DNA of 64,000 nt from Lachnospiraceae bacterium (lineage in GTDB: Bacteria; Bacillota; Clostridia; Lachnospirales; Lachnospiraceae): contig JAEEND010000027.1 in the NCBI GenBank assembly GCA_016283575.1, forward strand, positions 2,711 through 66,710. The letters are read 5' to 3'. Position 1 is the first letter of the stretch; the number at the start of each line of letters is the position of its first letter. The notes under the pieces were generated by a model. It had not been told where the DNA came from. It did not search any database and saw only the letters and a list, made by a program, of their open reading frames with translations. Of this stretch, positions 36,117 to 62,476 are shown piece by piece. Position numbers and translations under genes: made by a program.

Positions 36117-36149
36117 TGAGACAAAACTAAAGGGGGACAGCAACAAAAT

Positions 36150-36169
36150 CCCGGCGGAGTGCCGCCGGG
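36150..36169 (-). terminator. Terminator after the phosphoesterase gene (bidirectional shape)
   Basis: CCCGGCGG-agtg-CCGCCGGG, flanked by A-rich sequence on one side and T-rich on the other (ATTTTGTTG on the coding strand). Confidence 0.65.
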
Positions 36170-36176
36170 TTTATTT

Positions 36177-41092: not shown

Positions 41093-41175
41093 TTATTTCC
41101 TCCATCATCAATAAAACCACATTAATGCCTGCAGTTTTATTTTTAAGTAATAATCCTTTAAGCTTTTATGAAAAT

Positions 41176-42801: not shown

Positions 42802-42808
42802 TCTTAAG

Positions 42809-43168: not shown

Positions 43169-43340
43169 AATAATCACCTTTTCTAAAAGAATTTTCTTTG
43201 GTTTTTAAATGATATCATTATAAAAAATAATATACAATATTAAAAATACACTAAATCGAACAAGTTTTTCTGATATTATTAACTCATTCCTTTTATCTCA
43301 CTATAAGCCGAATAATGATTCCTAGTCGTGTGGCTTTCGA

Positions 43341-44066: not shown

Positions 44067-44088
44067 GGTGACCTCCGGAATAAAAAAA

Positions 44089-45390: not shown

Positions 45391-45420
45391 TGAGTTACTC
45401 CTTGTTATGTAGTGCGAAAA

Positions 45421-45436
45421 CCCGCATAGCTTCGGG
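45421..45436 (-). terminator. Small hairpin plus U-run after 45511-46230
   Basis: Minus strand CCCG-aagctatg-CGGG followed by TTTTCGC. An outer gcgaaaa/ttttcgc pairing is also possible. Confidence 0.4.
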
Positions 45437-45510
45437 ATTTTTCGCAATATTGTGATTATTCTTTCGTATGAAGAATTATCGTTTTGTTAAATCTATATTA
45501 TATTTTTATA

Positions 45511-46230
45511 TCAGTAAATCGCTGTGGTCTGAATCAATTTAAATACTGCTGTTATTATTAAAAATGACATGTAAATATTTGAGTCAATTTTCTTATCCTT
45601 AGTCACTCTGAAAATCAAAAATGTGATGACTATGTGAGTGAGCCAGAAGATCAATTTTTGAATCTCGGGTACGAATAAAGAAATGGCCGCTATGATAATG
45701 GCGATTGCGATTACTATGATTTCTGTCATGAACTCACGGGTTTTTAAGGTGTTTTTGATGGTTTTTTCACTAAATTCGGATTCCGCCACATCTTCAATAT
45801 TCGTTGATTTTACGGCATTTATGAGGGTTTTTAATATCAAAAACACGGCTATTATTAAACTTAGGTTTAATAAATCCTTGTTTATGAATGTAGTTACATC
45901 TATACTGCCCGGCAAGTCGGCTTGACTGAAGATCAGCGCGTGAAAAAGATTTATCGGCACTATAGGAACGAAGACTAAATATGTTACTAAGGCTTCGAAG
46001 AAGAGGTCGAATGTCACCTTCTTCTCGGCATATGTGACCATTGCAGAAATAATACAAGCGAGTACTACAGTTATCACCACATCGACTATTATTTCCCAGA
46101 TTGTTCTTGAAAGCATCCCGGTCTTCAAGTAAAAATAAAATCCGATTCCCTGAGCGCTTTCCATGTCATGAAACGCGTATATTGTCATGAGCATTAATAT
46201 GGGAGCTATGATTCTTTTTATAATCTTCAT
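45511..46230 (-). CDS. Integral membrane protein, unknown function (239 aa)
   Basis: Several long hydrophobic segments. The GGAGG for its ATG lies in the 3' end of the upstream gene. Confidence 0.7.
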   Translation of the reverse strand: MKIIKRIIAPILMLMTIYAFHDMESAQGIGFYFYLKTGMLSRTIWEIIVDVVITVVLACIISAMVTYAEKKVTFDLFFEALVTYLVFVPIVPINLFHALIFSQADLPGSIDVTTFINKDLLNLSLIIAVFLILKTLINAVKSTNIEDVAESEFSEKTIKNTLKTREFMTEIIVIAIAIIIAAISLFVPEIQKLIFWLTHIVITFLIFRVTKDKKIDSNIYMSFLIITAVFKLIQTTAIY

Positions 46231-46231
46231 G

Positions 46232-47347
46232 TCAACCTCCCATAGTCAATAACAATATATCCGTTACCGCGAGAACAAAGTACAAAGGCAATACATATAC
46301 TGTCGCTTTTTTATTTTCTTTTATTAATCCTGCAAGTAACCTTGCGGCTTCTAAAGCCAACAAAACCATTATACCAAAAGATGCCCGCGCAGGGAAATGC
46401 GGAGAAATAGCCATGGCTCCATAGGCAAGAGCCGCGGTTGTAAGTATCAAATAATCTTCTGTTTTGAGTAAATTGCCTGCTTTTTTATTAATGGCTATCA
46501 GCACTGCGACTATCAAAGCAACAGGTAATAACCATGAACAAAGAGCCGCATACATTATCAAAAACCGCTCTATAAGGATTTCTTTTAATGAACCCGCTTC
46601 CACGAATTCAGATCGCACAAAATTACCGGGAGCAAGGATGCAAAGAGCGCTTCCAATAAGGCTTCCCAAAGCTCCTATGATCATCCAGGGCTTAATCGGC
46701 TGTTTCTTTTTCCAATGAAGAAAGATTACGAGGCATGCAAGGCAGAAGGCCGCAGGGCCCATGTTTTCATTGCTCCAGCCTGTGATAACGGATAAAGGAA
46801 CGATTAAAACAGTCAGTAACACGCTTTTTTCACTGTCACGTCGCAGGCTTTGGATATAAATATATATAAATAATAAAATCCATGCGGATGAATATACGTA
46901 GTTAACGGCCCCGGCCTGCCAGAGCATGCTATGGAAGATGTCCGGATTAGAAAAGATAAGCAATGCTTCCGTTACTGAAAAAGTCGGGATGCGGTTTTTT
47001 TTCTCTACAAATAAAGATGCGATCAGACCCAAAAGCACAAACGCACATGTATTAAGTAAGTCCGCCATGTGTTCGCCGGACATAAGGGTCAGTTGGAGGA
47101 GCGCATGGGTTATGGATCTTCCGCCCCAGTTCATGTAGTGCCAGATCTGGCTTTCTATAATATCACTGAAGCTATGTAAAGGCTCGCCCGTTGCAAGGTT
47201 CGTCGCATACCAAAGGTCATCCATCATGAAGGGAGTGCGAAGGTTAGATACAAAAAATGCGATAATAATTGCAATAGAAAGGCATATGAAAGATAGGTTC
47301 AAAAGGGATTCTCTATGATCATTATTATTATCCGAAAACTTATTCAT
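46232..47347 (-). CDS. Polytopic membrane protein (paralogue of 57429-58946)
   Basis: Shares motifs MMDDLWYAT / TADDWAYGK and LCILAPGNFVR / LCIFAPGNTAR. The start was set at the ATG at 47347 (ATGAATAA overlap with the upstream stop); the ORF-track start at 47416 is less likely. Confidence 0.7.
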   Translation of the reverse strand: MNKFSDNNNDHRESLLNLSFICLSIAIIIAFFVSNLRTPFMMDDLWYATNLATGEPLHSFSDIIESQIWHYMNWGGRSITHALLQLTLMSGEHMADLLNTCAFVLLGLIASLFVEKKNRIPTFSVTEALLIFSNPDIFHSMLWQAGAVNYVYSSAWILLFIYIYIQSLRRDSEKSVLLTVLIVPLSVITGWSNENMGPAAFCLACLVIFLHWKKKQPIKPWMIIGALGSLIGSALCILAPGNFVRSEFVEAGSLKEILIERFLIMYAALCSWLLPVALIVAVLIAINKKAGNLLKTEDYLILTTAALAYGAMAISPHFPARASFGIMVLLALEAARLLAGLIKENKKATVYVLPLYFVLAVTDILLLTMGG

Positions 47348-48560
47348 AAGTAAATCCCCTGAAGATATTGACAAAATAGTAAATTCCGCTAAGGAGCTGA
47401 ATCGAAAATGCTCCATAAGTAATTAAAAGAGCATACCACTTAAGCTTCTTTTTGAAGGTTTCCTGAAGAAGTTTAACAGCGCTTACAAGCTCAAAAAAGA
47501 AGATTCCGTGCATGTAGCCCCAGCAGAAATTAAAGTCCTGGAACCTGAAGCCCTTTTCACATAATAGTCCCGCTTCAAGAAATGAAACAAGGAAAAAGAA
47601 CAGGGCGAATTTATATAAAGTGTCCCCCTTAATGGAGCGATTTACAGCGAACGCCACGAGGCAGGCAATGGCGAAAATGTTACCATAGAAAACTGCTTCC
47701 GGAATATATATATTCATAAGTTTCCATACATCGAAGAAGCAGAAGCCTATGCCCGATTCGGTTGCCGCGTCACCGGTGCCTGCAAATACACCACCGTATT
47801 GCCTGAGCATATCTATAAAAGTAGGTACAAAACAAAGTGCGAGAATCAATGTATTCTTTAGATTCTTAAACTTATTCTTTATAAGTCTAAAGGCCATGAT
47901 GAGACCTGCAACGGATACAAGCACCAATGTGAAGCTTGGCTTTGTGAAGGTCGTTAAGAAAAGAGAGACTGCGAAAACCACTAAGTCGCGCTTATTTATG
48001 TTAGCCTCATATTCTTTTAGGATTTTTGCAAAAGAAAAGAAGGCAACTATAGCAAAGGGTCTTGTTGCAGTGTAAGTCGCGTTATGCCAGGGATTCCCGG
48101 TGAAAATTCCGAGATAATTATTATATTTATGAGGTAAATGGATTCCCTCCGGAGTCACTACCATTGAAAGCAGGAAAACACAAAAGATAACTAGATCAGC
48201 GAAAATGTGCTTTGTCCGGTAGCTTTTGTCATCTGCCGAAATAACGATTAACTTATCTGAATAAAATTTAGCTGCAAGAAGAGCCAGCAAATTAAGCCCC
48301 GCCACTACGGTAGCAATGCTTACTTCCACCGGCATAAAAAACGCAAGGCCTCTCACGCACCAGAAAAACAGCCTGTAAGGGTATGAATATCCCGAATCAA
48401 TTCCCATGGCATCCTGCATGTAAGCTAAGATGTCAGATTTAAACATCACCTGATCCCCGGGGTGCATGGCCTGATTGTATGTGAGTACAAAAAGAAGCCC
48501 TGTCAAGACAAGGCACAGAAATAAGTATATAGAATAATCTGTAATCGGACGTTTTTTCAT
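47340..48560 (-). CDS. Polytopic membrane protein (paralogue of 56065-57336)
   Basis: Shares PWHNATYTATRPFAIVAFFSF / LWHNSTYITAKPFTILAFLSF and FNFCWGYMHGIFFF / GNFQWGYCHSLFFLFF. Confidence 0.75.
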   Translation of the reverse strand: MKKRPITDYSIYLFLCLVLTGLLFVLTYNQAMHPGDQVMFKSDILAYMQDAMGIDSGYSYPYRLFFWCVRGLAFFMPVEVSIATVVAGLNLLALLAAKFYSDKLIVISADDKSYRTKHIFADLVIFCVFLLSMVVTPEGIHLPHKYNNYLGIFTGNPWHNATYTATRPFAIVAFFSFAKILKEYEANINKRDLVVFAVSLFLTTFTKPSFTLVLVSVAGLIMAFRLIKNKFKNLKNTLILALCFVPTFIDMLRQYGGVFAGTGDAATESGIGFCFFDVWKLMNIYIPEAVFYGNIFAIACLVAFAVNRSIKGDTLYKFALFFFLVSFLEAGLLCEKGFRFQDFNFCWGYMHGIFFFELVSAVKLLQETFKKKLKWYALLITYGAFSIQLLSGIYYFVNIFRGFTYE

Positions 48561-48605
48561 AGTTTCAGTATACGACGTATGATTGGATTTGTCAGTGTAA
48601 ACCTG

Positions 48606-49652
48606 TCAGGATATATACTTTCCGCCGGGAAGCTTTCTAACTACCCAGGATATTGCAAAGGCTACCGCGAAGGACAATACTGTAAAAATAATAACCTTCA
48701 CCGGTTCATATATATTAAGCATTATATGTTGCTGCAACACCTCAACTGCAATTAAGTGCGATAAATATATTCCAAAGCTATACTTAGCAATAACACTAAT
48801 CACTCTGTTTTCTTTATCGAAATGCTGTTTTGCAAAAACAAATATTGCCACTGCTATCAATGCAGTCTGCACAGACTCATAAGCAATGAAGTCGGCGGAT
48901 ATAGCATTATTATGTTTGCAAGCCAATATTGTTGTAATAAATGTGAAGGCCACACTACAAATGCCTGCTGCATATATTCCTACACGTACCTTTTGCTCAA
49001 AAGAATGCGTTCTCAAATAGTATCCCAACACATAGTAGAATCCATAAGCTCCAACCACCTCAATCCTCATCGTCATCATCACATAACTAAAGGATGAGGC
49101 AAGCAGAGAAACAAGCGGCTTAGATATGTACGAACCTATTAAGACAACCTCCGGCAAAACAAACGCAAAAACGGCCGATAAAATCAGGAAATATCGAGTA
49201 AGCTTTTCATCGCGAACTAATTCCTTTAGAATAGGCGTTACCAAATAAAGCCCCATTATCAACCAGCAATACCAAAGATGATAATGACCACCTATAAGAC
49301 TACTGAAAAAATCCCAAAGGCTATCATGATGGAACAAAATCGCGTATATAAAAGACCACACAAGAAATGCAATTAAGATTCTTTTGCAACGTTTTAAAGC
49401 CTCTTTAACAGAGAAGCTTTCTTTTGCTAAAAGAAGGCTACCGCTAATCATTACGAATACCGGCACGGCCCAGCGTGATATAGATGTAAAAATCGTCAAA
49501 ATATACCATTCAGCTGAAAATAGAACCGTTCCCTGCTCCCACGCTCTCGCAGAAACATGGATAAACACAACGCAAAATGCCGCCAATGTCCTGAGATAAT
49601 CAAGAAAGACCACTCTATTATTTTCTTTTATCACCTTAACCCCATTTTCCAA
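48606..49652 (-). CDS. Acyltransferase family 3 (O-acyltransferase-type) membrane protein
   Basis: VFLDYLRTLAAFCVVFIHVSA start typical of Acyl_transf_3, with about 10 hydrophobic segments. Confidence 0.75.
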   Translation of the reverse strand: MENGVKVIKENNRVVFLDYLRTLAAFCVVFIHVSARAWEQGTVLFSAEWYILTIFTSISRWAVPVFVMISGSLLLAKESFSVKEALKRCKRILIAFLVWSFIYAILFHHDSLWDFFSSLIGGHYHLWYCWLIMGLYLVTPILKELVRDEKLTRYFLILSAVFAFVLPEVVLIGSYISKPLVSLLASSFSYVMMTMRIEVVGAYGFYYVLGYYLRTHSFEQKVRVGIYAAGICSVAFTFITTILACKHNNAISADFIAYESVQTALIAVAIFVFAKQHFDKENRVISVIAKYSFGIYLSHLIAVEVLQQHIMLNIYEPVKVIIFTVLSFAVAFAISWVVRKLPGGKYIS

Positions 49653-49770
49653 CTATATACCTCCCAATAAATGGTATGTAGACATGTCATCATATAAACT
49701 TTACTTTTCCTTAAAGCTCTAATAAGATAATAATAACCTAAATCCTAAGACAAAAGGAACCTAAATTTAC

Positions 49771-51363
49771 ATGAAAAACAAACTTTTAAGCACTAAAACG
49801 CTTTTCTTTATAATACTAATCTTTGCCACCGTCGCACGTTTAGTTTTTCTTGGCGGCTTACCCGCAGGGATTAACCAGGATGAAGCCATGGGTGCAATGG
49901 ATGCATATGCCTTGTCGATGTACGGCACCGATAGATTCGGAATGCATATGCCCGTACACTTTACCGCTTGGGGCGAGTCCCAGATGAGCGTTCTTCTTGC
50001 TTACTTCATGGTTCCTTTTATAAAAATCTTTGGATTTTCAACATTTGCCATCAGACTTCCCATGGCAATTATTAGTTCTGTTTCCATCGCAGTTATCTTT
50101 TTTATAACAAAAGGAATATTTAATGATTCTCGACTCGCTTTATTTACTATGTTTATAACAGCCATCAACCCCTGGCAGTTTATTCAGAGCCGCTGGGCTA
50201 TTGACTGTAACATGTTTCCTCATATTTTTCTTATAGGATTTCTCCTGCTTCTTTACGGTCTCAAGAAAAGATGGGCGCTTTATCTCTCGATGCTTTTCTT
50301 CGGCCTTACTTTTTATAGCTACGGCATCGCCGTATACACAGTACCAGTGTTTTTGTTTGTATTCGCGCTTTACTGCCTGATAAAGAAGCAGTTAGAGCTT
50401 CGCGACATCATTATTTCCATTCTTATTTTTACTGTAGTGGCATTACCCGAAATATTGGTTATGGTTGTAAACATGTTTCACTTGCATAGTATAGAAACAC
50501 CTCTTTTTACCATCCCATGTTTCCCCGAAAGTGTACGAAGCAACGATATTTTATTCTTAAACTTTAGTTTCGCTCAGCTTGGAAAGAATGCGCTTAGCAT
50601 GTTAATGCATGTGTTTATCCAGACCCCGGATTATATCTTCAATACAATCCCTTTCTTTGGACCTTTATATCATGTTTCCATCCCATTTATGATTATTGGC
50701 ATTATCATGACAACATTTCACTTCTTCAGAGAAAGCCAAATCGAAATCAAAGCAAAATACCTTGCGCTTTTAGGTTTTCTCTTATCCGGCATTTGGGTTG
50801 GCCTTATCACCTACGAAGTCAATGTAAACAGAGTAAACATCATCTTTTATCCCTTAATCATTTTCACGGGCGTAGGAATATTCGAAACCGTAGAATTTAT
50901 CAAAAAACAAACCGGTAAATCCTTAGCCCTCGCCTTTACACTTCTTTACATGGCACTTGGGTGCGCGTTCTTTATTAGTTATGGGACATATTACAAAGAA
51001 AGTATTAAGCCCTGGTTTAGTGTGAATTTCTTAGATGCAGTCTCAGTTGCCGACTCAATGGATGATATAGATGCTTTGTATATTACAAGCAGCATGGAGA
51101 CTCAGACAAATGCGAAGATGGCCGAGATTCTCACTGAGTATGCACTGAAGATGGATTCAAAGTATTTCCAAGAAGAGACAAATAGTCTTAATGGGCGCAC
51201 ACTTCTTCCATATAGTGAACGTTATCACTTTGTAGACCGAGAAACTAAAAAAACAACCTCCCGCAAACCTTTTGCTTACATCACAAAAAAAAGCGAAAAC
51301 AGCACTGTTACGGAAGGTTATGAAGTAATATATGAAAATGAGACTTATGCGGTTTTAAAATAA
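49771..51363 (+). CDS. GT39/ArnT-like (PMT_2-type) GT-C glycosyltransferase
   Basis: GINQDEAMGAMDAYALSMYGTDRFGMHMPVHFTAWGESQMSVL first-loop motif; polytopic; soluble C-terminal ~130 aa. Confidence 0.7.
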   Translation: MKNKLLSTKTLFFIILIFATVARLVFLGGLPAGINQDEAMGAMDAYALSMYGTDRFGMHMPVHFTAWGESQMSVLLAYFMVPFIKIFGFSTFAIRLPMAIISSVSIAVIFFITKGIFNDSRLALFTMFITAINPWQFIQSRWAIDCNMFPHIFLIGFLLLLYGLKKRWALYLSMLFFGLTFYSYGIAVYTVPVFLFVFALYCLIKKQLELRDIIISILIFTVVALPEILVMVVNMFHLHSIETPLFTIPCFPESVRSNDILFLNFSFAQLGKNALSMLMHVFIQTPDYIFNTIPFFGPLYHVSIPFMIIGIIMTTFHFFRESQIEIKAKYLALLGFLLSGIWVGLITYEVNVNRVNIIFYPLIIFTGVGIFETVEFIKKQTGKSLALAFTLLYMALGCAFFISYGTYYKESIKPWFSVNFLDAVSVADSMDDIDALYITSSMETQTNAKMAEILTEYALKMDSKYFQEETNSLNGRTLLPYSERYHFVDRETKKTTSRKPFAYITKKSENSTVTEGYEVIYENETYAVLK

Positions 51364-51411
51364 GCATAGCATCCATTGAAAGCATACAGTTTACATTGCC
51401 ATTGTAATCTT

Positions 51412-53256
51412 TCAGAACTCATTACACTTATTTCTTTTTTGTTGTAAAGCTCTACTGATACCGATAACAGCTGTACCTAGTAACCCCATCACATCTATGG
51501 CGAGCATCAGCCTCCGCCCTTTATCCTTAACCCGGCCCACATATGTAATGTTATACATTATTGGAGTCTCTAATTTTTGACCATTTATCTGAATATTTCC
51601 AAAATCAAACACCTCGGTTAAATGTGCATCGGAAAGATATGTCTCCACAACTTCCGCTTCAGATATAAGCATTTCAACAGTATAAGTCTTTCCTTCGATA
51701 AGGTCGCAATCTAACCACGTTTGGCTAAAAGGAGCACCTACCCTATCTTTTAGATATATAGTCGTGCTATATACAGTTTCACCGGAATCAAGAATAGATA
51801 AATCCACCATTCCCTCTCCATCCGGACTCGAAATATTAAACTCAAAACTCTTTAATTCAGAAAGACATGGCGTATAATCAAATGAAATCTCATCCCCATC
51901 ATGCAACTCTATTTTTGCTGGAGCAGCATAATTTGGTCTTTCAACCTTCTCATTTCCAATACCGCTTATTGGAATCCCAATCAAAAAAGCACTAACCCAC
52001 ATCACGCATATCAGAATTTTATTTGTAGATTTCGCGTTATTATTCTCAACGTTCAGCTCATATGAACATAAATATAACGTAAATGCACTTATGCAAATAT
52101 TGAAAATTCTATACGTGAAAAAATGATGAATAGTAGTATGATTAGATAAAACCGAATACCACAGTATTCCGGAAAAACCTATTAAAAAATATATCAGCCC
52201 GCTTTTATCGAGATTGGTTTTTATCTCGCATTTAAAACTTATATAAACGCCATATGCAATCCAACCAAGAATTATGGCTCCGTAGACAAAATTCTCATAA
52301 TGGTGCCAATTTATAAAAATCGTGTCGAAACGCCCAAAAGCATAAAAATTATATTGAAGCGTTGAATCAATTTCACCTGCTCGATAAAAAATCTCATGAA
52401 ACGCTTCTCTTACAACATTATAGCCGAGTATAGGTGTGGCGATAAGCCATTTTAAAAGCCAGAATATAGAATACCCCATCACCCAAGATACCGAGGCACT
52501 CGCGGCATCTGCAAAAAGCCTATTTAACTTTTTGTCTTCTGCAATCACCACATACCAGAGTAATGGCAAAGCATAAGTCAGTAATGGGAATGTCAATAAA
52601 TCAAAATATGAAGTCAAAATTCCCAATATCAAGAAGAAATAAGCGAATGTGTTCACTCTGAATCGATTTCCGAATATAAGTACATACCCTATTCCTAAAA
52701 AAGATATGTAAAATACAGGAGAATATTGCAATGACTCCGCCAACGCAACCGGCATCAAAAGAAAATAAGATGTTAGTAATGCCAGTACATATCGAAACTT
52801 CTTTGTTCTATTAAAAACCAAGAAACAAAGACAAATCACTAATGAAAGCTGAAGATAGAAATTAACCCCGCGCCACTCTTCATAATTCATGAAGTGAAGA
52901 ATTACTTTCAAGGGTAATATATATCCATGCCAGTATCTGGGATAATCCATATTGCTTAGCATTTGCCTTAATATGTTATCCGACGGCATCTCAGAAGCCG
53001 TCCTTATAATCAAAGAATCTGTACTATCATCAAGCGTATCCGTATTATTATCAAACTGGTGATAGAAAAGATTATTATACTGCCCCATTGCTGAGGGATA
53101 AAACCCTTCACTTTCCAAAATCTCAAGCGACTTGTTGGAGTTGGAATTAGGAGTGATTCTATACCCCAAAAACAAACAAAAAAAACCAACTGCAACGGCA
53201 AACAGAATAATCAAAACCGAACCAATACAAGTTCGCAAAAACCTTGTATACTTCAT
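51412..53256 (-). CDS. Polytopic membrane protein with C-terminal extracytoplasmic domain (GT-C/polymerase-like candidate)
   Basis: 614 aa with a YPRYWHGY motif, about 11 hydrophobic segments, then a ~170-aa beta-rich tail and a final TM segment. Confidence 0.65.
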   Translation of the reverse strand: MKYTRFLRTCIGSVLIILFAVAVGFFCLFLGYRITPNSNSNKSLEILESEGFYPSAMGQYNNLFYHQFDNNTDTLDDSTDSLIIRTASEMPSDNILRQMLSNMDYPRYWHGYILPLKVILHFMNYEEWRGVNFYLQLSLVICLCFLVFNRTKKFRYVLALLTSYFLLMPVALAESLQYSPVFYISFLGIGYVLIFGNRFRVNTFAYFFLILGILTSYFDLLTFPLLTYALPLLWYVVIAEDKKLNRLFADAASASVSWVMGYSIFWLLKWLIATPILGYNVVREAFHEIFYRAGEIDSTLQYNFYAFGRFDTIFINWHHYENFVYGAIILGWIAYGVYISFKCEIKTNLDKSGLIYFLIGFSGILWYSVLSNHTTIHHFFTYRIFNICISAFTLYLCSYELNVENNNAKSTNKILICVMWVSAFLIGIPISGIGNEKVERPNYAAPAKIELHDGDEISFDYTPCLSELKSFEFNISSPDGEGMVDLSILDSGETVYSTTIYLKDRVGAPFSQTWLDCDLIEGKTYTVEMLISEAEVVETYLSDAHLTEVFDFGNIQINGQKLETPIMYNITYVGRVKDKGRRLMLAIDVMGLLGTAVIGISRALQQKRNKCNEF

Positions 53257-53339
53257 AGAAACTCCTTCAATGCAATCTGAGTAAGGTAGCGTAGCGGTCC
53301 CCTTAACGCCATGACTATAAAATAACTATCTTTGGTGCA

Positions 53340-54950
53340 CTACTTCTTCCACACCACAAAATATTTACCATGGCCTCCAACCCAATAATCATCATAATTG
53401 AAATACCCCACTTCTTCCTGTCTAATTACGTAAGCAACTTTCTTATCGGCGTACTCCGCTACCACATCATCATTAACATACCCGTAAATATAACGTTCCT
53501 TGTAGGGAAGCACTTCTTTTCCATCCTGAATATCCGTCAAGCCTTGGAAATAGTGGGCATCCATTTTATGGGCATACATCGTCAAAATCTCTCCGAGTTT
53601 ATAATAATCCTTGTCAGTCGGATCTATCTGCGGATTTGTACGTATATAATAATAATCGCAATCACAGTCCTGTGCAGCCTTAACAGCATCTAAATAATCA
53701 TGATAATAGTAAGTATATGAAATGGGTGCCCATGCAATGAAGTAGACATATGCGAAATATAATCCAACTCCTGCATAGCTAAGCATAACTCCCGAAAACA
53801 CAATCTTGCTCTTCACAAAAATCCATTCAATTCCAATTGAAGCTATGATAACAACCATGTAGAAAGCGATATTAATTCGATGTATAACAGGCCCATTCGT
53901 TAATACACCTACCCAGGTTGTCAACAATAACCACGCAATCATAATGTTATAAAACATGTTGTGAAACTTGCATTTGATTGATCTGATAATCATTACAGCC
54001 AGACCAATAATAAAGAAAAACGTAGTCCCATGATAAATAGGGCCCAAGTTCTGTGTCGTACTGGTAAAAGTGAAATCCCCTTTCCACCAGACAACATTCA
54101 GATACTGCGTAAAATTAGCCCAGGCTTGTTTAAAACTAAAATTAGTAAAAAGAATATCGTTAGCTCTGGTACTTTCCGGAAATCTCGGCATTGTAAAAAA
54201 CGGTGTCTCAATCGTTTCCCATCCGAAAACATTAATAGCCATGGTAATGTATTCAGGCAATGAAACAAGTACAAAGATAACAATAGAAATCAAAACTTCT
54301 TTCCAGCCGATTATCTTTTCTCTTACCATAAACAAAGCTACGATCAATAGAAACAGAGGCAAGGAATAATCCGCCGTCGCATAAGCATAAACCGAAAGCC
54401 CGTATACCACCATGGATAAATACAGGCACCACTTCTTTTTAAAGCCTAAGACAAGTAACAGCGTCGCTATCAAAAACATATGCGGGTACATGTTGCAGTC
54501 TATGGACCATAGACTCTGCATGTAATGCCAAGGATTGATAATCATCATGAATAGCGTAACAAAAGCAAGCACTGCATTACTTTGTTTTCTCACAAAATAA
54601 AATAATGCTATCAATCCCAGCATACTGATAATCAATAACGGCAATCTGATTACCGGAGTTGAAAAACCAAAAAGCTTAATAAAAGGCACCATGCAGTATG
54701 ACAGCAGAACGCTCATCTGTGAGTCCCCCCATGCGGTGAAATGCACAGGAAATCTCATGCCCCATTTATCAGTTCCATACATAGATAAAGCCAGAGCATC
54801 AACTGCAGCAGAGGCTTCATCCTGATGCACTCCATGAGGAATATCCCCGAATCTCACCAGTCTGATAAATAAGCCTACTGTCACAAACAGGAGCATCATT
54901 ATAGTCTCGAAATATTTATTTGAAAATAATCTTTCTATCTTTTCTTTCAT
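53340..54950 (-). CDS. GT39/ArnT-like GT-C glycosyltransferase, paralogue of 49771-51363
   Basis: GVHQDEASAAVDALALSMYGTDKWGMRFPVHFTAWGDSQMSVL..FIKLFGFSTPVIRLPL. Confidence 0.7.
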   Translation of the reverse strand: MKEKIERLFSNKYFETIMMLLFVTVGLFIRLVRFGDIPHGVHQDEASAAVDALALSMYGTDKWGMRFPVHFTAWGDSQMSVLLSYCMVPFIKLFGFSTPVIRLPLLIISMLGLIALFYFVRKQSNAVLAFVTLFMMIINPWHYMQSLWSIDCNMYPHMFLIATLLLVLGFKKKWCLYLSMVVYGLSVYAYATADYSLPLFLLIVALFMVREKIIGWKEVLISIVIFVLVSLPEYITMAINVFGWETIETPFFTMPRFPESTRANDILFTNFSFKQAWANFTQYLNVVWWKGDFTFTSTTQNLGPIYHGTTFFFIIGLAVMIIRSIKCKFHNMFYNIMIAWLLLTTWVGVLTNGPVIHRINIAFYMVVIIASIGIEWIFVKSKIVFSGVMLSYAGVGLYFAYVYFIAWAPISYTYYYHDYLDAVKAAQDCDCDYYYIRTNPQIDPTDKDYYKLGEILTMYAHKMDAHYFQGLTDIQDGKEVLPYKERYIYGYVNDDVVAEYADKKVAYVIRQEEVGYFNYDDYWVGGHGKYFVVWKK

Positions 54951-54998
54951 AAAGCCTTCCTTTTTTTAGGCACATCTTTACATAAATCTCACAATTTA

Positions 54999-56042
54999 TT
55001 AGTTTTTAACCATCCTGCCGAGCAACGGCTGAATAAACATCTTAGAGAGCACCCCAACCACAATCATAATTCCATAATACGTAAGCATACCTATAGGACC
55101 ATACCAAGGGTATTGCCACATATGGGCCTTTATATACATAAACAGCGGTATAAAGGCTACAAAATGCCACATAAAAGCATTGAAAGCAACATCAGCAGCA
55201 AATCCCCATGCTTTATGATTAAAAATCTTTTCTACAATGCTTGATCTAAAGATGATTATGATTGCGGGATAGAAAAAGAAGGTAAGCAAATATACAAAAC
55301 CCACTTCCAGCATCTCGGGCTTAATTACAAACAAAAGACTTAAGGTCACCACAATAAAAACAGATGCAACATTTTCTTTTATAGATGTAGTTCTATCATA
55401 AATGTATGTCGCAAGCATCAGGCCGGTGAAGAACGATATATATCCTCTTGCTGTATAGGCATTGGTAAATGCAACTCTGATGTCATATGTATTAATGATG
55501 ATCCCCCACATAATCATCGCCAAAAAGAAATAGCGAGAGGATGTCCCAAGTTTTCTACATACGGCTACGCCGAGATAAAAAATCAAATAACACAAGAGCA
55601 AAACCGAAATATACCAAGCCGGATTATTAATGAAAATAGTATCTGCAAATACCCATCCCTTCTGCATTCCAACAGACGCCACCACTAAATCCCAAAGCTG
55701 CATGTCGTTAAAGAAACCTTCCAGCATATGGTATTTAAGGTAATATATGAAAGCAAAGGCTTGAAACGCAACTGCTGTTAATGCAAGCATGGGTACAAGA
55801 CGCTTAATGCGCGGTATATAAAACTCCTTAAAAGTCAAGCCTTTATAAATTCTATCAACATAAGGAAACATAAAAAAACCTGACAGTATGAAGAAAAGTT
55901 CCACCATGTATCCAAAATAGAATTTACCGTCCACGAAGTTTAACCCATCAGTAGAACGTCCAATATATTGCTGATAGTGATGAAACAGTATAAATGTTGT
56001 AGCTGTTATTTTCAAAAAATCAAGTGAATATTTACGTTGCAT
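54999..56042 (-). CDS. Acyltransferase family 3 membrane protein
   Basis: YSLDFLKITATTFILFHHYQQY start and about 10 hydrophobic segments. Confidence 0.7.
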   Translation of the reverse strand: MQRKYSLDFLKITATTFILFHHYQQYIGRSTDGLNFVDGKFYFGYMVELFFILSGFFMFPYVDRIYKGLTFKEFYIPRIKRLVPMLALTAVAFQAFAFIYYLKYHMLEGFFNDMQLWDLVVASVGMQKGWVFADTIFINNPAWYISVLLLCYLIFYLGVAVCRKLGTSSRYFFLAMIMWGIIINTYDIRVAFTNAYTARGYISFFTGLMLATYIYDRTTSIKENVASVFIVVTLSLLFVIKPEMLEVGFVYLLTFFFYPAIIIIFRSSIVEKIFNHKAWGFAADVAFNAFMWHFVAFIPLFMYIKAHMWQYPWYGPIGMLTYYGIMIVVGVLSKMFIQPLLGRMVKN

Positions 56043-56064
56043 ATTAAGTCTCCATTTTCTTACT

Positions 56065-57336
56065 CTATGAATACACTACACCTGTCATAAGAGATGCATA
56101 ATAGGCAATTCCGGCGATAAGATGCATCAAAAATGCAATCCATTGAATGGCAATTGCCACCTTGCCTTTACTTGTTTTTTCCGCTGAGGAAAAGCTATCC
56201 TCTACAAGAAGAATCAGCGACATAAAAAACAAGAAAAACAGACTGTGACAGTACCCCCACTGAAAGTTACCATCATGAATTTTGAAGCCTTTTTCATAAA
56301 ATAATAAAAACATTAATGCAGCAAAAATAAATTGAATCCATGACATTAAATACCCTATATTACTCTTTAAACGTTTTGCGTTAAATAAGAGACTTATAAG
56401 TGGGAAAAAGCATGCCATCAGGATGGCCATGGGAATATTATTACATTTTTCTCCCCAAATTAGAGCAAAAGCTATACCCAGACCGCCGTCTTCATCCCTG
56501 CTAGAATGAAGATATACATCTAAGTATTGATATACCAGGATTGCAAGTGTCGGTACCGTAGATATAAACAAATACACATCTTGCAGTATGGTAGCCTTAC
56601 CGTGAATTATTAAAATAACAAGCGTCAGCAGAGCAGCGCTAGCTCCGAAAGCAATGGTATAGCTAGGCTTTGCCAAAGTTGAAACAGAAAGACTTACAGA
56701 AAAAAAGATGTAGTCGAATAATCTATCCCTTTTTTCTATAATCCTCTCGAACAATATTACAAATGATAAAAAGGCAAGAATCGTAAACGGTTTTGCAGTT
56801 ATATACGTCGAATTATGCCAAAGATTAGGTGAATATACTCCTGAGAATCTATATCGCCAAAACCCCAACTTGTTTCCGGTCAAGAAAAGCATAGATACAT
56901 AGTTAATCGCCAGTGCAAGAAATGATATAAACAAGCCACCATATATTTCGTGATTTCTTTTGAACTTCTGCTTAACTGTATCAAGAAGAAGGAAATCCAA
57001 TACAACCTTAGATACAATTAGACCAAAAATCTCATATATCAATGTAGCAATAGCAGTTCCTAATTCCGCTCCCAAAAAATGATTTCTAAAGAAAAGCTTA
57101 TAAATAACTTTTTCCGTAAAAAAGAAAATGGGATAAGGAACTGTTATGTTATATACGTTACCCTTTAAATACATGGTATACGCATACATGTCGGAATGGA
57201 ATAAATCATTAAGTCTTACTGATTGTCTGTAGAATAAATACCAGTTTAAGTATGTAATTGGAATTAGCAGCAAGAAAAACACACCGTAATTTATCAAGTA
57301 TTCTTTCTTCTTTTTAAGAATCATGTTTAATTCCAT
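56065..57336 (-). CDS. Polytopic membrane protein (paralogue of 47340-48560)
   Basis: See the shared motifs listed for 47340-48560. Confidence 0.75.
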   Translation of the reverse strand: MELNMILKKKKEYLINYGVFFLLLIPITYLNWYLFYRQSVRLNDLFHSDMYAYTMYLKGNVYNITVPYPIFFFTEKVIYKLFFRNHFLGAELGTAIATLIYEIFGLIVSKVVLDFLLLDTVKQKFKRNHEIYGGLFISFLALAINYVSMLFLTGNKLGFWRYRFSGVYSPNLWHNSTYITAKPFTILAFLSFVILFERIIEKRDRLFDYIFFSVSLSVSTLAKPSYTIAFGASAALLTLVILIIHGKATILQDVYLFISTVPTLAILVYQYLDVYLHSSRDEDGGLGIAFALIWGEKCNNIPMAILMACFFPLISLLFNAKRLKSNIGYLMSWIQFIFAALMFLLFYEKGFKIHDGNFQWGYCHSLFFLFFMSLILLVEDSFSSAEKTSKGKVAIAIQWIAFLMHLIAGIAYYASLMTGVVYS

Positions 57337-57428
57337 ATTTCTTCCATTCTTTCGTATGTATATCCACTTTAATTAGATGTTAGTCTGCGTTGAAAACCAC
57401 ACCTGCCATAACTAAATCATTGTTTATC

Positions 57429-58946
57429 CTATTCTTCCTGTGGAAAAGCAGCTAATTCAACACACTTTTTGTTGTAATAACCTGCGCATGTAGGATTAAC
57501 CCAACTGCCATCTTCAAAATCGCAATAATAACACATATTTCCGTATTCACGAGGAATCGGTTCAAAATAGCACTCTTCTACACTAGGATCGTTGAGTATT
57601 TCAAGGCGTGCTTCCCACTGTTCAGCATAGCGCTCTGCAGCTCCGCTTTTTAACGCAGCGTAGGCTTGGTATGATGTCAGGTTCTTTAATTCTGATGTGT
57701 AGAGTGCAGCTACCAGCAACAATCCCCAAACACTATACCATACGCAGAGGTTAAGTGTTTTTCCGGTTGTTTTATCTAAGAAAGTGCCCACTTTGTTATT
57801 ACGTATCTTCCTTTCAATCCAGCCTATCCAATAAAACAGATTGAGAAGCATCCAAACTAAATATGCAAAATAAAGTATATCCGCCATTCTGCCACCTCCG
57901 GTATTACCGTCCACATACATAGTAGCTGTTATCTGAGTTGCATAAACTCCATAGCTAAAGAAAGTAACTACTCCAGGTAGCTTAAACTCATAATCAAGAT
58001 TCTTAACAACAAGCCATAAGAATGGAATAACCATGAGAAGCAAAAGCCACATCTTGATGGGTAATGTCCAACTATAAATATTAGTCAACGTCCGCCAAAG
58101 TGACATTCCAATGGTCCAAAGAATGCCATTAGTAGTGCCACCAAAATTCCCATTTAATCGAGCAGTATTGCCCGGTGCAAAAATGCAAAGAGCAAAAGAA
58201 ACCAGTAATGCAACAAAAGGTATGCATAATCTTTTTGCATCATGAAATCTTCGCGCGATTAATAAATACAATAAAGCGAGACCTAATAGCACACACTGAG
58301 ACAGTGAAGTAGCGTAGTTACCACCTCCTATTGCAACAGATAAAACCGATGCAATAATAATTAATATCACATCTCTACTTTTCTTATGTTCAGCCAATAA
58401 CAAGCTAAGCAAAGTTCCCATTTGCAATAGAGAAAGAGCAAAAGGGAAAGTATATATCATAGCTCCGCCATGCCAATAAAAGCCTTCTACCGGAAAAGGA
58501 CAGCACAATATCGCTATCATGATAAACGGGATAGTAATAGGCAAAAGGTAGGCTCGGTTTTTCTTTTCTCTATCAATTGTAACTTTGGCAAAAAAGAAAA
58601 GCCATGTCGCAATAAGTGTTATTATTACTTCCCATACAACTATTCTATAGAAATGCACATTGCTCCACGCTCCAGGATTTATTCCGGAAAGGAAAGTAAT
58701 CATAAATCTCGGCTCCCAGCTTATCCTACTTCTAATCGCCACATTAACTGCTGCCTTTATGGCTGCAAAAACATTGCCTCCCGAAGTGATTACATCGTGG
58801 AAGTCTTTACCATAGGCCCAGTCATCTGCCGTAGGATAATTATAGTGACCGAGCATCAGCAAAGGCACAACTACCACTATCAATGTAAATACCAAAAGAA
58901 TATTCAATACAATTACTATTTTTTTATCTTTATTTTTGAAATTCAT
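57429..58946 (-). CDS. Polytopic membrane protein (paralogue of 46232-47347)
   Basis: 505 aa with HYNYPTADDWAYGKDF near the N-terminus. It overlaps the upstream gene by 17 nt. Confidence 0.75.
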   Translation of the reverse strand: MNFKNKDKKIVIVLNILLVFTLIVVVVPLLMLGHYNYPTADDWAYGKDFHDVITSGGNVFAAIKAAVNVAIRSRISWEPRFMITFLSGINPGAWSNVHFYRIVVWEVIITLIATWLFFFAKVTIDREKKNRAYLLPITIPFIMIAILCCPFPVEGFYWHGGAMIYTFPFALSLLQMGTLLSLLLAEHKKSRDVILIIIASVLSVAIGGGNYATSLSQCVLLGLALLYLLIARRFHDAKRLCIPFVALLVSFALCIFAPGNTARLNGNFGGTTNGILWTIGMSLWRTLTNIYSWTLPIKMWLLLLMVIPFLWLVVKNLDYEFKLPGVVTFFSYGVYATQITATMYVDGNTGGGRMADILYFAYLVWMLLNLFYWIGWIERKIRNNKVGTFLDKTTGKTLNLCVWYSVWGLLLVAALYTSELKNLTSYQAYAALKSGAAERYAEQWEARLEILNDPSVEECYFEPIPREYGNMCYYCDFEDGSWVNPTCAGYYNKKCVELAAFPQEE

Positions 58947-60492
58947 CTATTCTTCCCCTAACCACACGTTTTATAACGCTGAACACCGCTAACGTTGCTC
59001 CGCACACAAACCAAGGCCAATGATTATATAATTGCCTGCTGTTGGCTTCGAACAGCATGACATAAATCATTATTCCCACACCTGTTGCATACACTGTAAA
59101 GCTATAAAAATCAGGAATATGTTTACCAAACATCAAAAACCAGCCAACGGCGAATAATATAAGCAACGCATCCCATTCTGCAGTAACCCAGTATCTGTAA
59201 ATTCGCCGGCTTTCTCCCTGCCAGGAACACCACTGAAAAAGCTTGCCCTTTTCAGCAGGATTATCCGCAAAATAAAAGTCCATAACATTAAGCGTCCCTG
59301 TTCCGAAATTCACGAGAGCCTTCTGCTTTACATGTTCTTTATCAAATAAAGCACTTTTATGCTCCCAGATAAAATTTCTTCCGACCTCAATCTTATCGTC
59401 ATAGCCTGTCGTTGACATAAGCAAATGTAAGGCTTCTGAATCATCGGAATAAGATCCGTCACCTTCCAGGCCCATTCCCATATAATAGTACACAAGAGGA
59501 ATATGCCATGTATCGTCATATTCTTTTAAGGGTAGCGAATTAGCATATGCATTAAAGGAAAAAGACGCCATCGCTATGCACGCAGTTGGCACCAAAAGAT
59601 TTATCGCATATTTCTTTATATTTCCAGAAATAAACACCCATATAACTACAGCAATAAAGGATATCGCTACTGTTGCCTTTATCTCAGTGCCAATGGCCCA
59701 GAATAACCCTGATAAAATCAGGGATATAATTTCAGCTTTACTATACTTTTCTTTCTTTTTAAGAGAAGCCGACCAGAATACCAGCGCAATAACACCGAAT
59801 CCAATTGAAAAAGCATCAGTATATCGTGCTTGGGTATATCCCCATACGATAGGACTAGCATAAAAAGTAAGTGCTCCAAGTAAGCCTACCGACACATATA
59901 CTGTCGATTTTTTTAGCAAAATGAAAATAGCAATTCCGGCAACAATTACGTGTATTATATTGAGAACTACAAGCAAAAAATCAAGATTAGCGATTCCTAA
60001 AAGGCTACCCATTCGATAAATAAATCCTATCAATACTGCTGCCGGTAAGTTATTGCGCCATCTTGCAAAATATGTCCAGTCTATCTCATCGGTTAACCCC
60101 GCGAAATATCTGGCGCCATTTAATAAAGACTCAGCATCAGTACGTACTCCGCATAAAGAGGGATAGATAAGTAGTCCCAGGAAAATGCCGTAAGCAATTA
60201 AAAAAACTGCTGAGATAACATATAGAACAGGGAAAATTTTTTTTATATTGATCCTGCATGCAAGTTTCTTTTCGATTAACAGAAATGCCGTACCGAATAA
60301 ACCTATCGTCAGGATAAAAAAGACAATTTTCTTATATATTAATTCTCCTGTTTCAATCCAATTAGGTTCACGAAGCACTGTAATGATCAGCATAACCAAC
60401 AAAAGTGTAACAAAAAGAACCACTGCCGAAACAAGCGCGGACATCAGTGACCATTTATTGTTATTAGATTGTTTGGTTACGCTTTTATTCAC
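58930..60492 (-). CDS. Polytopic membrane protein, GT-C-like candidate
   Basis: 520 aa with about 12 hydrophobic segments and a central extracytoplasmic segment. Confidence 0.65.
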   Translation of the reverse strand: MNKSVTKQSNNNKWSLMSALVSAVVLFVTLLLVMLIITVLREPNWIETGELIYKKIVFFILTIGLFGTAFLLIEKKLACRINIKKIFPVLYVISAVFLIAYGIFLGLLIYPSLCGVRTDAESLLNGARYFAGLTDEIDWTYFARWRNNLPAAVLIGFIYRMGSLLGIANLDFLLVVLNIIHVIVAGIAIFILLKKSTVYVSVGLLGALTFYASPIVWGYTQARYTDAFSIGFGVIALVFWSASLKKKEKYSKAEIISLILSGLFWAIGTEIKATVAISFIAVVIWVFISGNIKKYAINLLVPTACIAMASFSFNAYANSLPLKEYDDTWHIPLVYYYMGMGLEGDGSYSDDSEALHLLMSTTGYDDKIEVGRNFIWEHKSALFDKEHVKQKALVNFGTGTLNVMDFYFADNPAEKGKLFQWCSWQGESRRIYRYWVTAEWDALLILFAVGWFLMFGKHIPDFYSFTVYATGVGIMIYVMLFEANSRQLYNHWPWFVCGATLAVFSVIKRVVRGRIDEFQK

Positions 60493-60709
60493 CTATTGTC
60501 CTCCAAATATGCCATCACATTGTATTCTATAATATTTCCTGTCTCTTTTCCAGTTGTTAGTAGTCTATTCGGTTGAAAAGAAGGCTAAAATACTCTATCA
60601 TTAACATGTCTTTTAGCTCTAAAGCGAAACGGCCGCATTACAACTGCTAAAAGGCATATTCAACTTACTTGAATAATCTATATATTCGTTTTCATAAGGA
60701 AATAATTTA

Positions 60710-62476
60710 ATGCAAAGCAAATTGAACAATCTGATAAATAAAATGAACTTCGAAAGGATTCTACTCATTCTTCTTTTGCTTCTCTCGACCGCTAACATGA
60801 TATACCAGGGAAGTCGCAAAGAAGGCTACCACGTGGATGAAGTATATTCCTATGGTCTTGCAAACAGCGAATACCTTCCCTTTATGCACTTTGGTGAAAT
60901 GGAATATAGCGTTAAAGATTGGATGAAAAGTTACGGTCCCGGCGAAAACATCGGTGACCTTTTTAAGAACCTTATAAATGATTTTAAGTTATTAAAGGAA
61001 TGCGATTTTAGGTTTAAAGAAAGCGTAATCTACCGAGATTACCTCATTGCACAAACTAACAGTTACGACACAAAGACTACCACTTGGATGTCAGGCCAGG
61101 CTTATCAGGACTATATCAGTGCTTCTAAGAATAATCGCTTCAACATTGCATCAGTATATTATAACCAGCGAGGCGATGTGCATCCGCCACTGTTTTACTT
61201 GCTGCTTCATTTTTTATGCTCGATTTTTTATGGCACATTTTCAAAGTGGTTTGGATTGAGCCTTAACATTCTTTATATGCTTCTTGCCCTTATTCTTATC
61301 TGGAAAATTACCAGCCGTTACCTTGGTAGCCAGATAGTTGGTTACATGTCAATAATAGCGTACGGCTTTTCTTTAGGTTTTATCGATACGGCTGTTTTTA
61401 TCAGAATGTATGCGCTGTTTACGCTTCTTGCGTTGTTTTTCTTCTACATGAATCTAAAGCTTGCAGATGGAGAGTTCACTTTTAACCGAAAGCTTAGGGT
61501 TGAATTGATCCTCGCAACACTTTTAGGCTACATGACGCACTACTATTTTGTGCTCTATGCCATAGGTGTAGCTGTTGTAATGTGCATATGGATGGCATGT
61601 ACCCAAAAATGGAAATCCCTTTTATCATACATACTTACTCTGATGGGAAGCGCGGTTATCGGTATTATTATCTGGCCCTTCTCCATTAAGCACGTGTTTT
61701 TCGGATACAGAAATGCCGGAGCACTACAAGCTCTTGATGAAAAAAGATTCTATTTTGATAAATTTCGTTGGATGTTTGAGTATGTCTTTCAGGGAATCTT
61801 CGGAGGGCATGCTTGGGTATTTCCAGTGATTCTTTTATTGATTGTTGCTGGCCTTGGAATTGCTCGCGCTAAAAAGGTTCCCCTTGGGATAATTTCACTT
61901 ATTACAATACCTGTTCTTTTTTATACCATGGCAGTATCCCAGATAGTGCCATATTTAGACGGGAGATATGTAATGTGTTCCTATCCGTTTATCGTCATGA
62001 TTTGCATTAGCGGAATCTATTACACAGTTAGGAGGTTTTGTAATAGATACAATATTCTTCCGAAAAAACTCCCTGAATATAGTGTTATCTTTCTTGGAAT
62101 CATGTTCCTGTTAACCAGCAATTCTTTTGCCAGAACCTCCAACTATCTCTACATCGGAGGCCAAGAAACCATCGAAATCCCTGAGCACACAGTATGCATT
62201 TATGTCATGGCAGACGGATCCTGGAACGTTAGTGCTCGCGAAACCACAGCGCTCGCCAAATGCGATAAGGTTGCTGTCACATATTTATCGACAATAGAAG
62301 TATTAAACAATACATATGAATATAAAGATGGTGAAACCGTGTTGGTAATGATACATGATGGATTAGACGTAGAAAGCTCATTAGAAAAGGTTTGCGATGT
62401 ATTCGACTTATCCACATTAAATGAAGTTAATAGAGTTATAACAAGGGACAATTCGATGATATATCTGGAAAATTAA
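60710..62476 (+). CDS. Polytopic membrane protein, GT-C (ArnT/PMT-like) candidate, paralogue of 22838-24730
   Basis: KEGYHVDEVYSYGLANSEY and RGDVHPPLFYLLLHFL motifs, with a C-terminal soluble domain. Confidence 0.65.
   Translation: MQSKLNNLINKMNFERILLILLLLLSTANMIYQGSRKEGYHVDEVYSYGLANSEYLPFMHFGEMEYSVKDWMKSYGPGENIGDLFKNLINDFKLLKECDFRFKESVIYRDYLIAQTNSYDTKTTTWMSGQAYQDYISASKNNRFNIASVYYNQRGDVHPPLFYLLLHFLCSIFYGTFSKWFGLSLNILYMLLALILIWKITSRYLGSQIVGYMSIIAYGFSLGFIDTAVFIRMYALFTLLALFFFYMNLKLADGEFTFNRKLRVELILATLLGYMTHYYFVLYAIGVAVVMCIWMACTQKWKSLLSYILTLMGSAVIGIIIWPFSIKHVFFGYRNAGALQALDEKRFYFDKFRWMFEYVFQGIFGGHAWVFPVILLLIVAGLGIARAKKVPLGIISLITIPVLFYTMAVSQIVPYLDGRYVMCSYPFIVMICISGIYYTVRRFCNRYNILPKKLPEYSVIFLGIMFLLTSNSFARTSNYLYIGGQETIEIPEHTVCIYVMADGSWNVSARETTALAKCDKVAVTYLSTIEVLNNTYEYKDGETVLVMIHDGLDVESSLEKVCDVFDLSTLNEVNRVITRDNSMIYLEN

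Follow-up and report, generated by a model that had tools for sequence, protein, structure and literature searches.

A strain-variable run of twelve membrane-protein genes in a Lachnospiraceae bacterium, probably serving extracytoplasmic glycosylation and O-acylation of a surface polymer

Why would a bacterium keep twelve genes for polytopic membrane proteins side by side, with nothing else among them? The question is raised by a 64,000-nucleotide stretch from a Lachnospiraceae bacterium (GCA_016283575.1, contig JAEEND010000027.1, positions 2,711 to 66,710), hereafter the window, in which positions 45511–62476 hold such a run. An earlier note on this DNA had proposed a battery of extracytoplasmic enzymes that glycosylate and O-acylate a surface polymer or surface proteins from lipid-linked donors. 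Lachnospiraceae are dominant gut and rumen commensals whose surface glycans are almost uncharted, and surface glycans set phage sensitivity, immune recognition, and strain individuality. We conclude, with a probability of roughly 0.6, that the segment from manC to position 62476 is a strain-variable island for the extracytoplasmic glycosylation and O-acylation of a surface polymer. The proposal of the earlier note is supported by eight candidate glycosyltransferases of the GT-C class and two acyltransferases, which may draw on lipid-linked donors. The membrane nature of the products, their families and folds, acidic motifs in the first loop, linkage in related genomes, and the replacement of cassettes between strains were all observed.

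The block consists of twelve consecutive open reading frames (ORFs) at the coordinates first assigned to them, and every product is polytopic, as claimed, with 5–10 hydrophobic segments each in a crude Kyte-Doolittle scan. The same scan gives 0–1 segment each for the ManC, DegT, HD, and Abi_2 proteins. Outside the block, 4 of 35 window ORFs of at least 100 amino acids (aa) encode at least four such segments, and a run of twelve is therefore far beyond chance (approximately 0.11^12). Moreover, the longest comparable run of membrane-protein ORFs is 3 in 73 loci surrounding homologous GT39-like genes in other species, and thus the twelve-gene run is real and exceptional. The lower GC content attributed to the block is also confirmed, with 0.34–0.42 per gene against 0.43–0.48 in the flanking housekeeping genes, and the difference extends to third codon positions (GC3; 0.34–0.44 in the block and 0.43–0.51 in the flanking housekeeping genes). 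This is not merely an effect of encoding membrane proteins, because the two ABC membrane proteins of the window have GC3 values of 0.47–0.48.

Eight of the twelve products carry evidence of GT-C membership, supported by Pfam matches, transitive homology, profile comparison, or predicted fold. These candidates show 6–10 hydrophobic segments by the crude scan, which stood in for a dedicated topology predictor. Two of them, X1 (47340–48560, reverse strand) and X2 (56065–57336, reverse strand), are paralogs with 28% identity (E 1.4e-38) and belong to a family, called X here, that has no Pfam model. The X family has zero sequence matches in Pfam, NCBIfam, or the PDB, and its database relatives are all unnamed. 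An AlphaFold2 model of X1, built on 61 sequences, reached a predicted local distance difference test (pLDDT) score of 93.9 and contains 11–12 long helices. Its top Foldseek matches in the PDB were PglB (3.4e-4), STT3, ArnT, Pmt1/2/4, DPY19, AftA, and ALG6, all of which are GT-C enzymes; these matches lie within the top 20 and have TM-scores of 0.34–0.51. X2 aligns with the invariant positions of the family and is assigned the same predicted fold.

The protein encoded at 46232–47347 (reverse strand), one of those for which no family had been named before, matches the Pfam family DUF6056 (PF19528, 1.7e-76) and is taken to be a GtrC-type membrane glycosyltransferase. In its longer form (46232–47416) it scores 258 bits against a cut-off of 27. 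A newer Pfam table calls PF19528 GT_STM0557_N, and STM0557–0559 form the Salmonella gtr operon responsible for glucosylating the galactose of the O-antigen (PMC3688519). The start codon of this gene is ambiguous, as gene callers give either 371 aa (46232–47347) or 394 aa (46232–47416). The shorter start, at 47347, overlaps the stop of the X1 gene by 8 nucleotides, which suggests translational coupling. J505 (57429–58946, reverse strand) is a distant relative of the DUF6056 protein (blastp 1.7e-4). Although J505 itself does not match PF19528, a homolog with 31% identity in a related locus (L021:19572-21086) matches DUF6056 over its full length (3.3e-17, 62.8 bits).

The two GT39-like proteins that had been named at the outset are borne out by Pfam. 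GT39a (49771–51363, forward strand) matches PMT_2 above the cut-off (3.3e-11) and is a GT39/GT83-like GT-C protein, while its paralog GT39b (53340–54950, reverse strand; 43% identity) matches PMT_2 below the cut-off (1.1e-4). Most homologs of GT39b with 45%–49% identity carry PF13231. K520 (58930–60492, reverse strand) appears to be a divergent PMT_2-related GT-C protein on the basis of its homologs, of which 497 representatives were found; among 67 aligned homologs, 25 match PMT_2 (best 9e-11), 7 match PMT, and 2 match GT87. L588 (60710–62476, forward strand), at the conserved edge of the island, is a probable GT-C protein; the suggestion that it is GT-C-like gains support from an hhalign match between its family and that of K520 (probability 87%, E 3.7e-6, 169 columns). 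A paralog of L588 lies outside the island at 22838–24730 (reverse strand), directly upstream of the flagellar late genes. It encodes a 630-aa protein with nine transmembrane (TM) segments and no Pfam match, is 30% identical to L588 over 426 aa (E 9e-50), and shares the loop motif 'KEG-x-H-x-DE'. With X1 and X2 recognized as paralogs and J505 as a distant DUF6056 relative, the seven families first described as unnameable are reduced to five. Searches of the PDB with sequence profiles from the X, F614 (described below), K520, L588, and GT39 alignments returned only designed helical bundles (E > 0.03).

Family alignments place an invariant acidic motif soon after the first TM segment (TM1) in each GT-C candidate family. 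The GT39 proteins have an invariant 'QDE' (D44-E45), the X family has S42-D43, the K520 family has D119, the L588 family has 'H-x-D-E' (D43-E44), and DUF6056 and J505 share an invariant DD (D41-D42 in J505). The Lys/Arg-rich N-termini suggest that the first loop, and with it the motif, would lie outside the membrane.

Both acyltransferase-3 (AT3) proteins were likewise named correctly and are recognized as membrane O-acyltransferases by the Acyl_transf_3 model (PF01757). AT3a (48606–49652, reverse strand) matches over its full length at 2.8e-41 and AT3b (54999–56042, reverse strand) at 7.1e-22, with scores of 142 and 78 bits, respectively, against a cut-off of 31, and both cover profile positions 2–322 of 326. 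Neither contains a fused SGNH domain. The tally of the block thus comes to eight GT-C or probable GT-C proteins, two AT3 acyltransferases, and two proteins without assignment (45511–46230 and 51412–53256).

The larger of these two, F614 (51412–53256, reverse strand), combines an orphan polytopic domain (residues 1–431) with a β-sandwich resembling a carbohydrate-binding module (CBM; residues 435–575) and a C-terminal TM helix. Its AlphaFold2 model (pLDDT 91.7) has a helical membrane domain of 430 residues. Foldseek matches in the PDB and in a viral library fall on the β-sandwich only (CBM6/35/36, BcsB, and phage tail proteins). A Pfam match is found in 0 of 57 family members. The sole profile hint is an hhalign probability of 43% with the K520 family; probabilities with the GT39, X, DUF6056/J505, and L588 families are below 3%. 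The smaller protein, A239 (45511–46230, reverse strand), has 239 aa and 5 hydrophobic segments. Its start abuts the stop of the DUF6056 gene, and it is possibly an accessory to that upstream enzyme; with its small size and 5 TM segments, it could conceivably also be a non-canonical flippase. A transporter identity for the proteins of the block, which the earlier note had named as an outcome that would contradict it, was rejected, as no transporter family was matched in Pfam or NCBIfam.

The island was compared with that of a sister strain, GCA_024712465.1, using 38 kb of a 154.8-kb contig on which the housekeeping genes of the window are also found. The flanks are 94%–98% identical in nucleotide sequence (98% for OTCase, Band7, and GH3), and identity falls to 84% at DegT and 88% at manC. 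Within the island it is 65% at 45511–46230, 70% at the DUF6056 gene, 79% at X1, 71% at X2, 68% at J505, and 70% at K520, before it rises to 88% at 60710–62476 and 97.7% at Abi_2. At the protein level, identity is 95.6% for ManC, 52% for A239 (which is syntenic), 68% for the DUF6056 protein, 73% for X2, and 89.5% for L588. The center of the island, which comprises AT3a, GT39a, F614, GT39b, and AT3b (48506–56064, genes on both strands), has no blastn match in the sister strain at all. In place of these 7.6 kb, the sister strain carries a 357-aa protein with a single TM segment, an MBOAT protein, a 589-aa protein with nine TM segments and a 'DIDESY' loop, a DUF6020 protein, and a third X paralog. 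The MBOAT protein (480 aa) adjoins the 357-aa protein, which has a 'TGSS' motif and no Pfam match (L077:4205-6730), and the two look like an O-acylation pair of the DltB/DltD or PatA/PatB kind. As this pair stands where the AT3 genes would be, one O-acylation machinery seems to have been exchanged for another. A third arrangement, with another seven-TM protein, occurs on a metagenome contig (L078), and cluster look-ups found almost no relatives at 90% identity or more for the twelve proteins.

O-antigen and capsule loci vary within populations in just this way, with conserved flanks around a replaced center, and here the pattern is realized in membrane enzymes. The variability that the earlier note had suggested as a possible outcome is therefore present, and the invariance that would have spoken against it is not: the center is replaced and the edges are 65%–79% identical in nucleotide sequence, between flanks of 94%–98% identity.

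The same families recur in other Lachnospiraceae. GT39-like homologs, with 45%–49% identity to GT39b and at most 56% to GT39a, are frequent in Acetatifactor, Waltera, Blautia, and further members of the family, where they sit in mixed loci. An X gene adjoins a GT39 gene in 18 loci, manC adjoins GT39-like genes in 10 of the 73 related loci, and the order manC, GT39, GDSL esterase, DegT, X is found repeatedly (loci L037, L044, L055, and L071). In five loci (L019, L028, L032, L038, and L069), a 298-aa GT2 protein with two TM segments and a GNAT protein lie between two X paralogs. This recurring linkage associates the X and GT39 families with GDP-mannose, with an amino-sugar route, and with a lipid-sugar synthase of the GtrB-like kind, and it indicates that manC and DegT belong to the system. 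Both genes are present upstream of the run, as previously described, and their presence there is not incidental, since they are conserved partners in other Lachnospiraceae.

ManC (44089–45390, reverse strand) is a bifunctional mannose-1-phosphate guanylyltransferase/isomerase-type protein (Pfam NTP_transferase and MannoseP_isomer) and probably supplies the GDP-mannose from which a lipid-linked mannose donor would be made. Its start codon is ambiguous; gene callers give 433 aa, and the mechanical ORF (44089–45447) gives 452 aa. DegT (39893–41092, reverse strand; Pfam DegT 1e-120) is a DegT/DnrJ-type sugar aminotransferase. Among proteins of solved structure, those of the ArnB type are closest to it (3e-66) and PseC and perosamine synthases come just behind; since all of these score alike, we dropped any call on its substrate. 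Between the two genes lies a 3-kb insertion (41084–44098, reverse strand) with an HD (dGTPase-like) protein, a 122-aa ORF, and a 241-aa lipoprotein-like protein. Blastn finds no counterpart of the insertion in the sister strain, whose DegT and ManC genes lie directly next to each other. GC3 is approximately 0.30 in the HD and 122-aa ORFs and 0.38 in the 241-aa ORF, and the HD protein has a weak PADLOC match to dGTPase defence (3.6e-10). The order upstream of the island is manC, this 3-kb segment, DegT, the GH3 gene, housekeeping genes, and then the flagellar region.

On the other side, the conserved right flank begins with an abortive-infection gene (62554–63498, reverse strand; Pfam Abi_2 2e-44, PADLOC AbiD 1.7e-65) that marks the start of a defence islet. 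Past the end of the window, the same genome (contig of GCA_016648615.1) continues with a RES-like gene followed by the Hachiman genes HamB and HamA. Because defence genes follow, the block does not run into a conventional exopolysaccharide (EPS) cluster downstream, which had been raised as a result that would refute the proposal. Strains differ in the defence genes that come after the island, as Abi_2 is accompanied in the sister strain by a 568-aa AAA_15/AAA_21 protein (L076:13063-14769). Further along the sister contig, L076:15382-21767 encodes a Wzy_C-like 562-aa membrane protein together with NeuC-, NeuA-, NeuB-, and PglD-like nonulosonic-acid genes. This may be a conventional glycan or flagellin-glycosylation cluster, and its first gene starts approximately 3.6 kb after the end of the L588 gene.

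Insertions and defence genes mark the region as a recombination hotspot, and it could be argued that unrelated membrane proteins have piled up there by chance or history and share no pathway. Two of the twelve proteins are without assignment, and scans found promoter-like and terminator-like sites at no more than chance frequency, both of which would suit such an explanation. However, ten of the twelve belong to glycan-modifying families and no transporter family was matched. Genes overlap or follow one another closely on one strand, other genomes carry the same families together, and the cassette that replaces the center in the sister strain again holds glycan-modifying membrane proteins. We therefore regard a mere accumulation as very improbable.

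If the island does act on a surface polymer, its enzymes may work as follows. Cytoplasmic nucleotide sugars, with GDP-mannose supplied by ManC and an amino sugar by the DegT route, would be loaded onto polyprenyl phosphate by a membrane-anchored GT2 enzyme of the GtrB/CsbB/Ppm type that would be encoded elsewhere in the genome. The lipid-linked sugars would then be flipped across the membrane. The active sites of the GT-C and AT3 enzymes would face the outside of the cytoplasmic membrane, where each GT-C enzyme may add a sugar at a particular position of a polymer on the cell surface, for example a lipoglycan, a cell-wall polysaccharide, or a polymer resembling teichoic acid. The AT3 proteins would move acyl groups through the membrane for O-acylation of that polymer, and the β-sandwich of F614 might hold the glycan acceptor. 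We infer the donors, the acceptor, the order of action, and any role in antigenic or phage-receptor variation.

Several points weigh against such a surface-modifying island. The supply of donors is an assumption, because neither the window nor the 38 kb compared in the sister strain encodes a polyprenyl-phosphate sugar synthase or flippase, and nothing in the locus identifies the acceptor. Fold evidence for GT-C comes from the X family only; the other families rely on Pfam and profile links, and some of the links between families are modest (40%–55%). The membrane domain of F614 has no GT-C protein among its top 50 Foldseek matches, and A239 has no match in Pfam or NCBIfam. The comparators for the island are one close strain and one metagenome fragment. 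Inverted repeats are short and imperfect, and no phase-variation element was found. A prophage-borne origin is without support, because profile scans found no relatives of the X and GT39 families on viral contigs.

The missing partners also bear on a broader alternative. Among window ORFs of 100 aa or more, Pfam searches found no GT2, GtrA, Wzx, Wzz, or initiating transferase, and a small multi-TM ORF is likewise absent from the window; the statement that no GtrB-, GtrA/Wzx-, or Wzz-like protein or initiating transferase is interspersed in the run is thus upheld. It is possible, though we consider it doubtful, that successive GT-C enzymes assemble an entire extracytoplasmic glycan or lipoglycan, such as a mannan-like polymer or a long side chain, with one or two polyprenyl-phosphate monosaccharides as donors, and that the AT3 proteins acylate the product. 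Lipomannan, lipoarabinomannan, and arabinan are made in this manner in Actinobacteria. Eight GT-C candidates are many when compared with the one to three used for decoration in characterized Gram-positive systems (PMC8035078), and the absence of a GT-A enzyme paired with each GT-C fits a small number of shared donors. The manC gene is co-oriented with the island and conserved beside it, the paralog pairs suggest successive linkage specificities, and the CBM-like domain of F614 recalls that of EmbC (PMC3044687). The locus nevertheless lacks primer-forming and anchor-forming enzymes, a polymerase, and a chain-length regulator, and gives no sign that the sugar is mannose. The interior is swapped wholesale, a change more readily tolerated in decorations than in a core polymer, and relatives carry the same families singly or in pairs. 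On such a scheme, the island would be a Firmicute counterpart of the mycobacterial lipomannan, lipoarabinomannan, and arabinan machinery, in which a complete heteroglycan or lipoglycan is built outside the membrane and cassettes are swapped for serotype-like diversity; we offer this as a tentative idea to which we give about one chance in five. If true, antigenic variation would arise by swapping extracytoplasmic rather than cytoplasmic enzymes.

The acceptor may also be protein. Actinobacterial PMT and streptococcal GT-C enzymes glycosylate proteins, and the enzymes of the island could likewise target S-layer proteins, pilins, adhesins, or Ser/Thr-rich regions rather than a polysaccharide. 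Two proteins match PMT_2, homologs of K520 also match PMT, manC is adjacent, and the flagellar genes have a paralog of L588 next to them. In Firmicutes, a GT-C system that glycosylates proteins is known (PMC12041528). However, PMT_2 does not discriminate, since it also covers ArnT-like and teichoic-acid glycosyltransferases, and DUF6056 is named after an O-antigen glucosyltransferase. Acylation by AT3 or MBOAT proteins and the CBM-like domain point to a glycan substrate, and the island encodes no candidate target protein. We therefore consider protein O-glycosylation unlikely and retain the modification of a surface polymer as the favored explanation.

Flagellin was separately considered as the target and rejected, despite the nearby L588 paralog, as 20 kb with housekeeping genes separate the island from the flagellar genes. 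In known systems, moreover, flagellin is glycosylated in the cytoplasm. The flagellar region itself contains eight tandem flagellin genes (274–12565; 357–528 aa), each with Flagellin_N and Flagellin_C domains, and late genes that follow to 22444. A tandem repeat at 35675–36124, with a period of 72/143 nucleotides (approximately 6 or 3 copies), lies inside two small ORFs (35610–36187) and aligns to the sister strain in several registers, and thus its copy number may differ between strains.

How does an island that would decorate a surface polymer from outside compare with systems that are already characterized? Multi-component transmembrane glycosylation in Gram-positive bacteria combines a GT-A enzyme of the CsbB/GtlA type, a GtrA/GtcA or Wzx flippase, and a GT-C enzyme such as YfhO, GtlB, GacL, or CsdB/D/F (PMC8035078, PMC9574508). 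The GT-C components of these systems lack sequence conservation and are recognized by fold (PMC8035078, PMC9574508), and their partners may be encoded elsewhere and used in common, an example being the single CflA flippase of L. lactis (PMC8035078). The island resembles them in its polytopic GT-C proteins, PMT_2-type members included, with an acidic motif in loop 1 and little sequence conservation, and a GtrB-like GT2 gene stands beside the same families in related Lachnospiraceae. However, those systems are organized as pairs or triplets of GT-A and GT-C components, whereas the island has approximately eight adjacent GT-C genes with no GT-A enzyme or flippase in 64 kb, several families without a Pfam model, and cassettes that are exchanged between strains.

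The enterobacterial and phage genes for O-antigen modification, gtrABC with its serotype-specific GtrC and the Oac/OafA AT3 acetyltransferases (PMC3688519), are similar in the kinship of DUF6056 and in the combination of glycosylation with AT3-type O-acetylation. Their terminal enzymes are also diverse, and their loci are horizontally acquired and strain-variable. Unlike gtrABC, the island occurs in a Gram-positive-type Clostridia host without lipopolysaccharide, has no adjacent gtrA or gtrB and no prophage context, and forms an array in place of one gene per operon.

Actinobacterial GT-C batteries (MptA-D, PimE, EmbA/B/C, and AftA-D) use polyprenyl-phosphate mannose or arabinose (PMC3485146, PMC3123699). 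They likewise comprise many GT-C enzymes with few lipid-linked donors and a donor synthase whose gene is separate from those of most transferases. The fold matches of the X family include AftA, and F614 has a CBM-like ectodomain, as do the Emb proteins and AftD. On the other hand, the phylum and envelope are different, no sequence homology was detected beyond the level of the fold, and the actinobacterial genes are conserved and essential whereas the island is hypervariable.

With the O-antigen rfb and capsule cps loci, the enterococcal epa variable region, and the variable part of lactococcal cwps, the island shares conserved flanks, a divergent or replaced center, low GC content, and a divergence that grows towards the center. 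The variable part of the lactococcal cwps structure determines phage sensitivity (PMC9574508). Those loci, however, mostly encode cytoplasmic GT-A/GT-B enzymes, sugar-nucleotide pathways, and Wzx/Wzy or ABC export, while the island encodes only membrane enzymes predicted to act outside the cytoplasm, save for manC and DegT at one edge. As standard finders of EPS and O-antigen loci key on cytoplasmic glycosyltransferases and Wzx/Wzy, they would miss a layer of this kind.

The types of parts are already known, as GT-C, AT3, GtrC-type, and PMT_2-type enzymes have all been described, and a limited literature search found no description of such a GT-C array in Clostridia. Two uncharacterized families are now available for study, namely X, with a confidently predicted GT-C fold, and the family of the 51412–53256 protein, with its CBM-like ectodomain. 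The two strains, a natural pair that differ by swapped cassettes, allow structure and function to be compared in a direct test, and interchangeable extracytoplasmic membrane enzymes of this kind could write much of the glycan diversity of these commensals. When compared with the known systems, what is unusual is the concentration of approximately eight GT-C genes without a GT-A enzyme or flippase, the presence of at least two families without a Pfam or NCBIfam model, one of which now has a predicted fold, and the placement of a hypervariable, cassette-swapping island next to defence genes.

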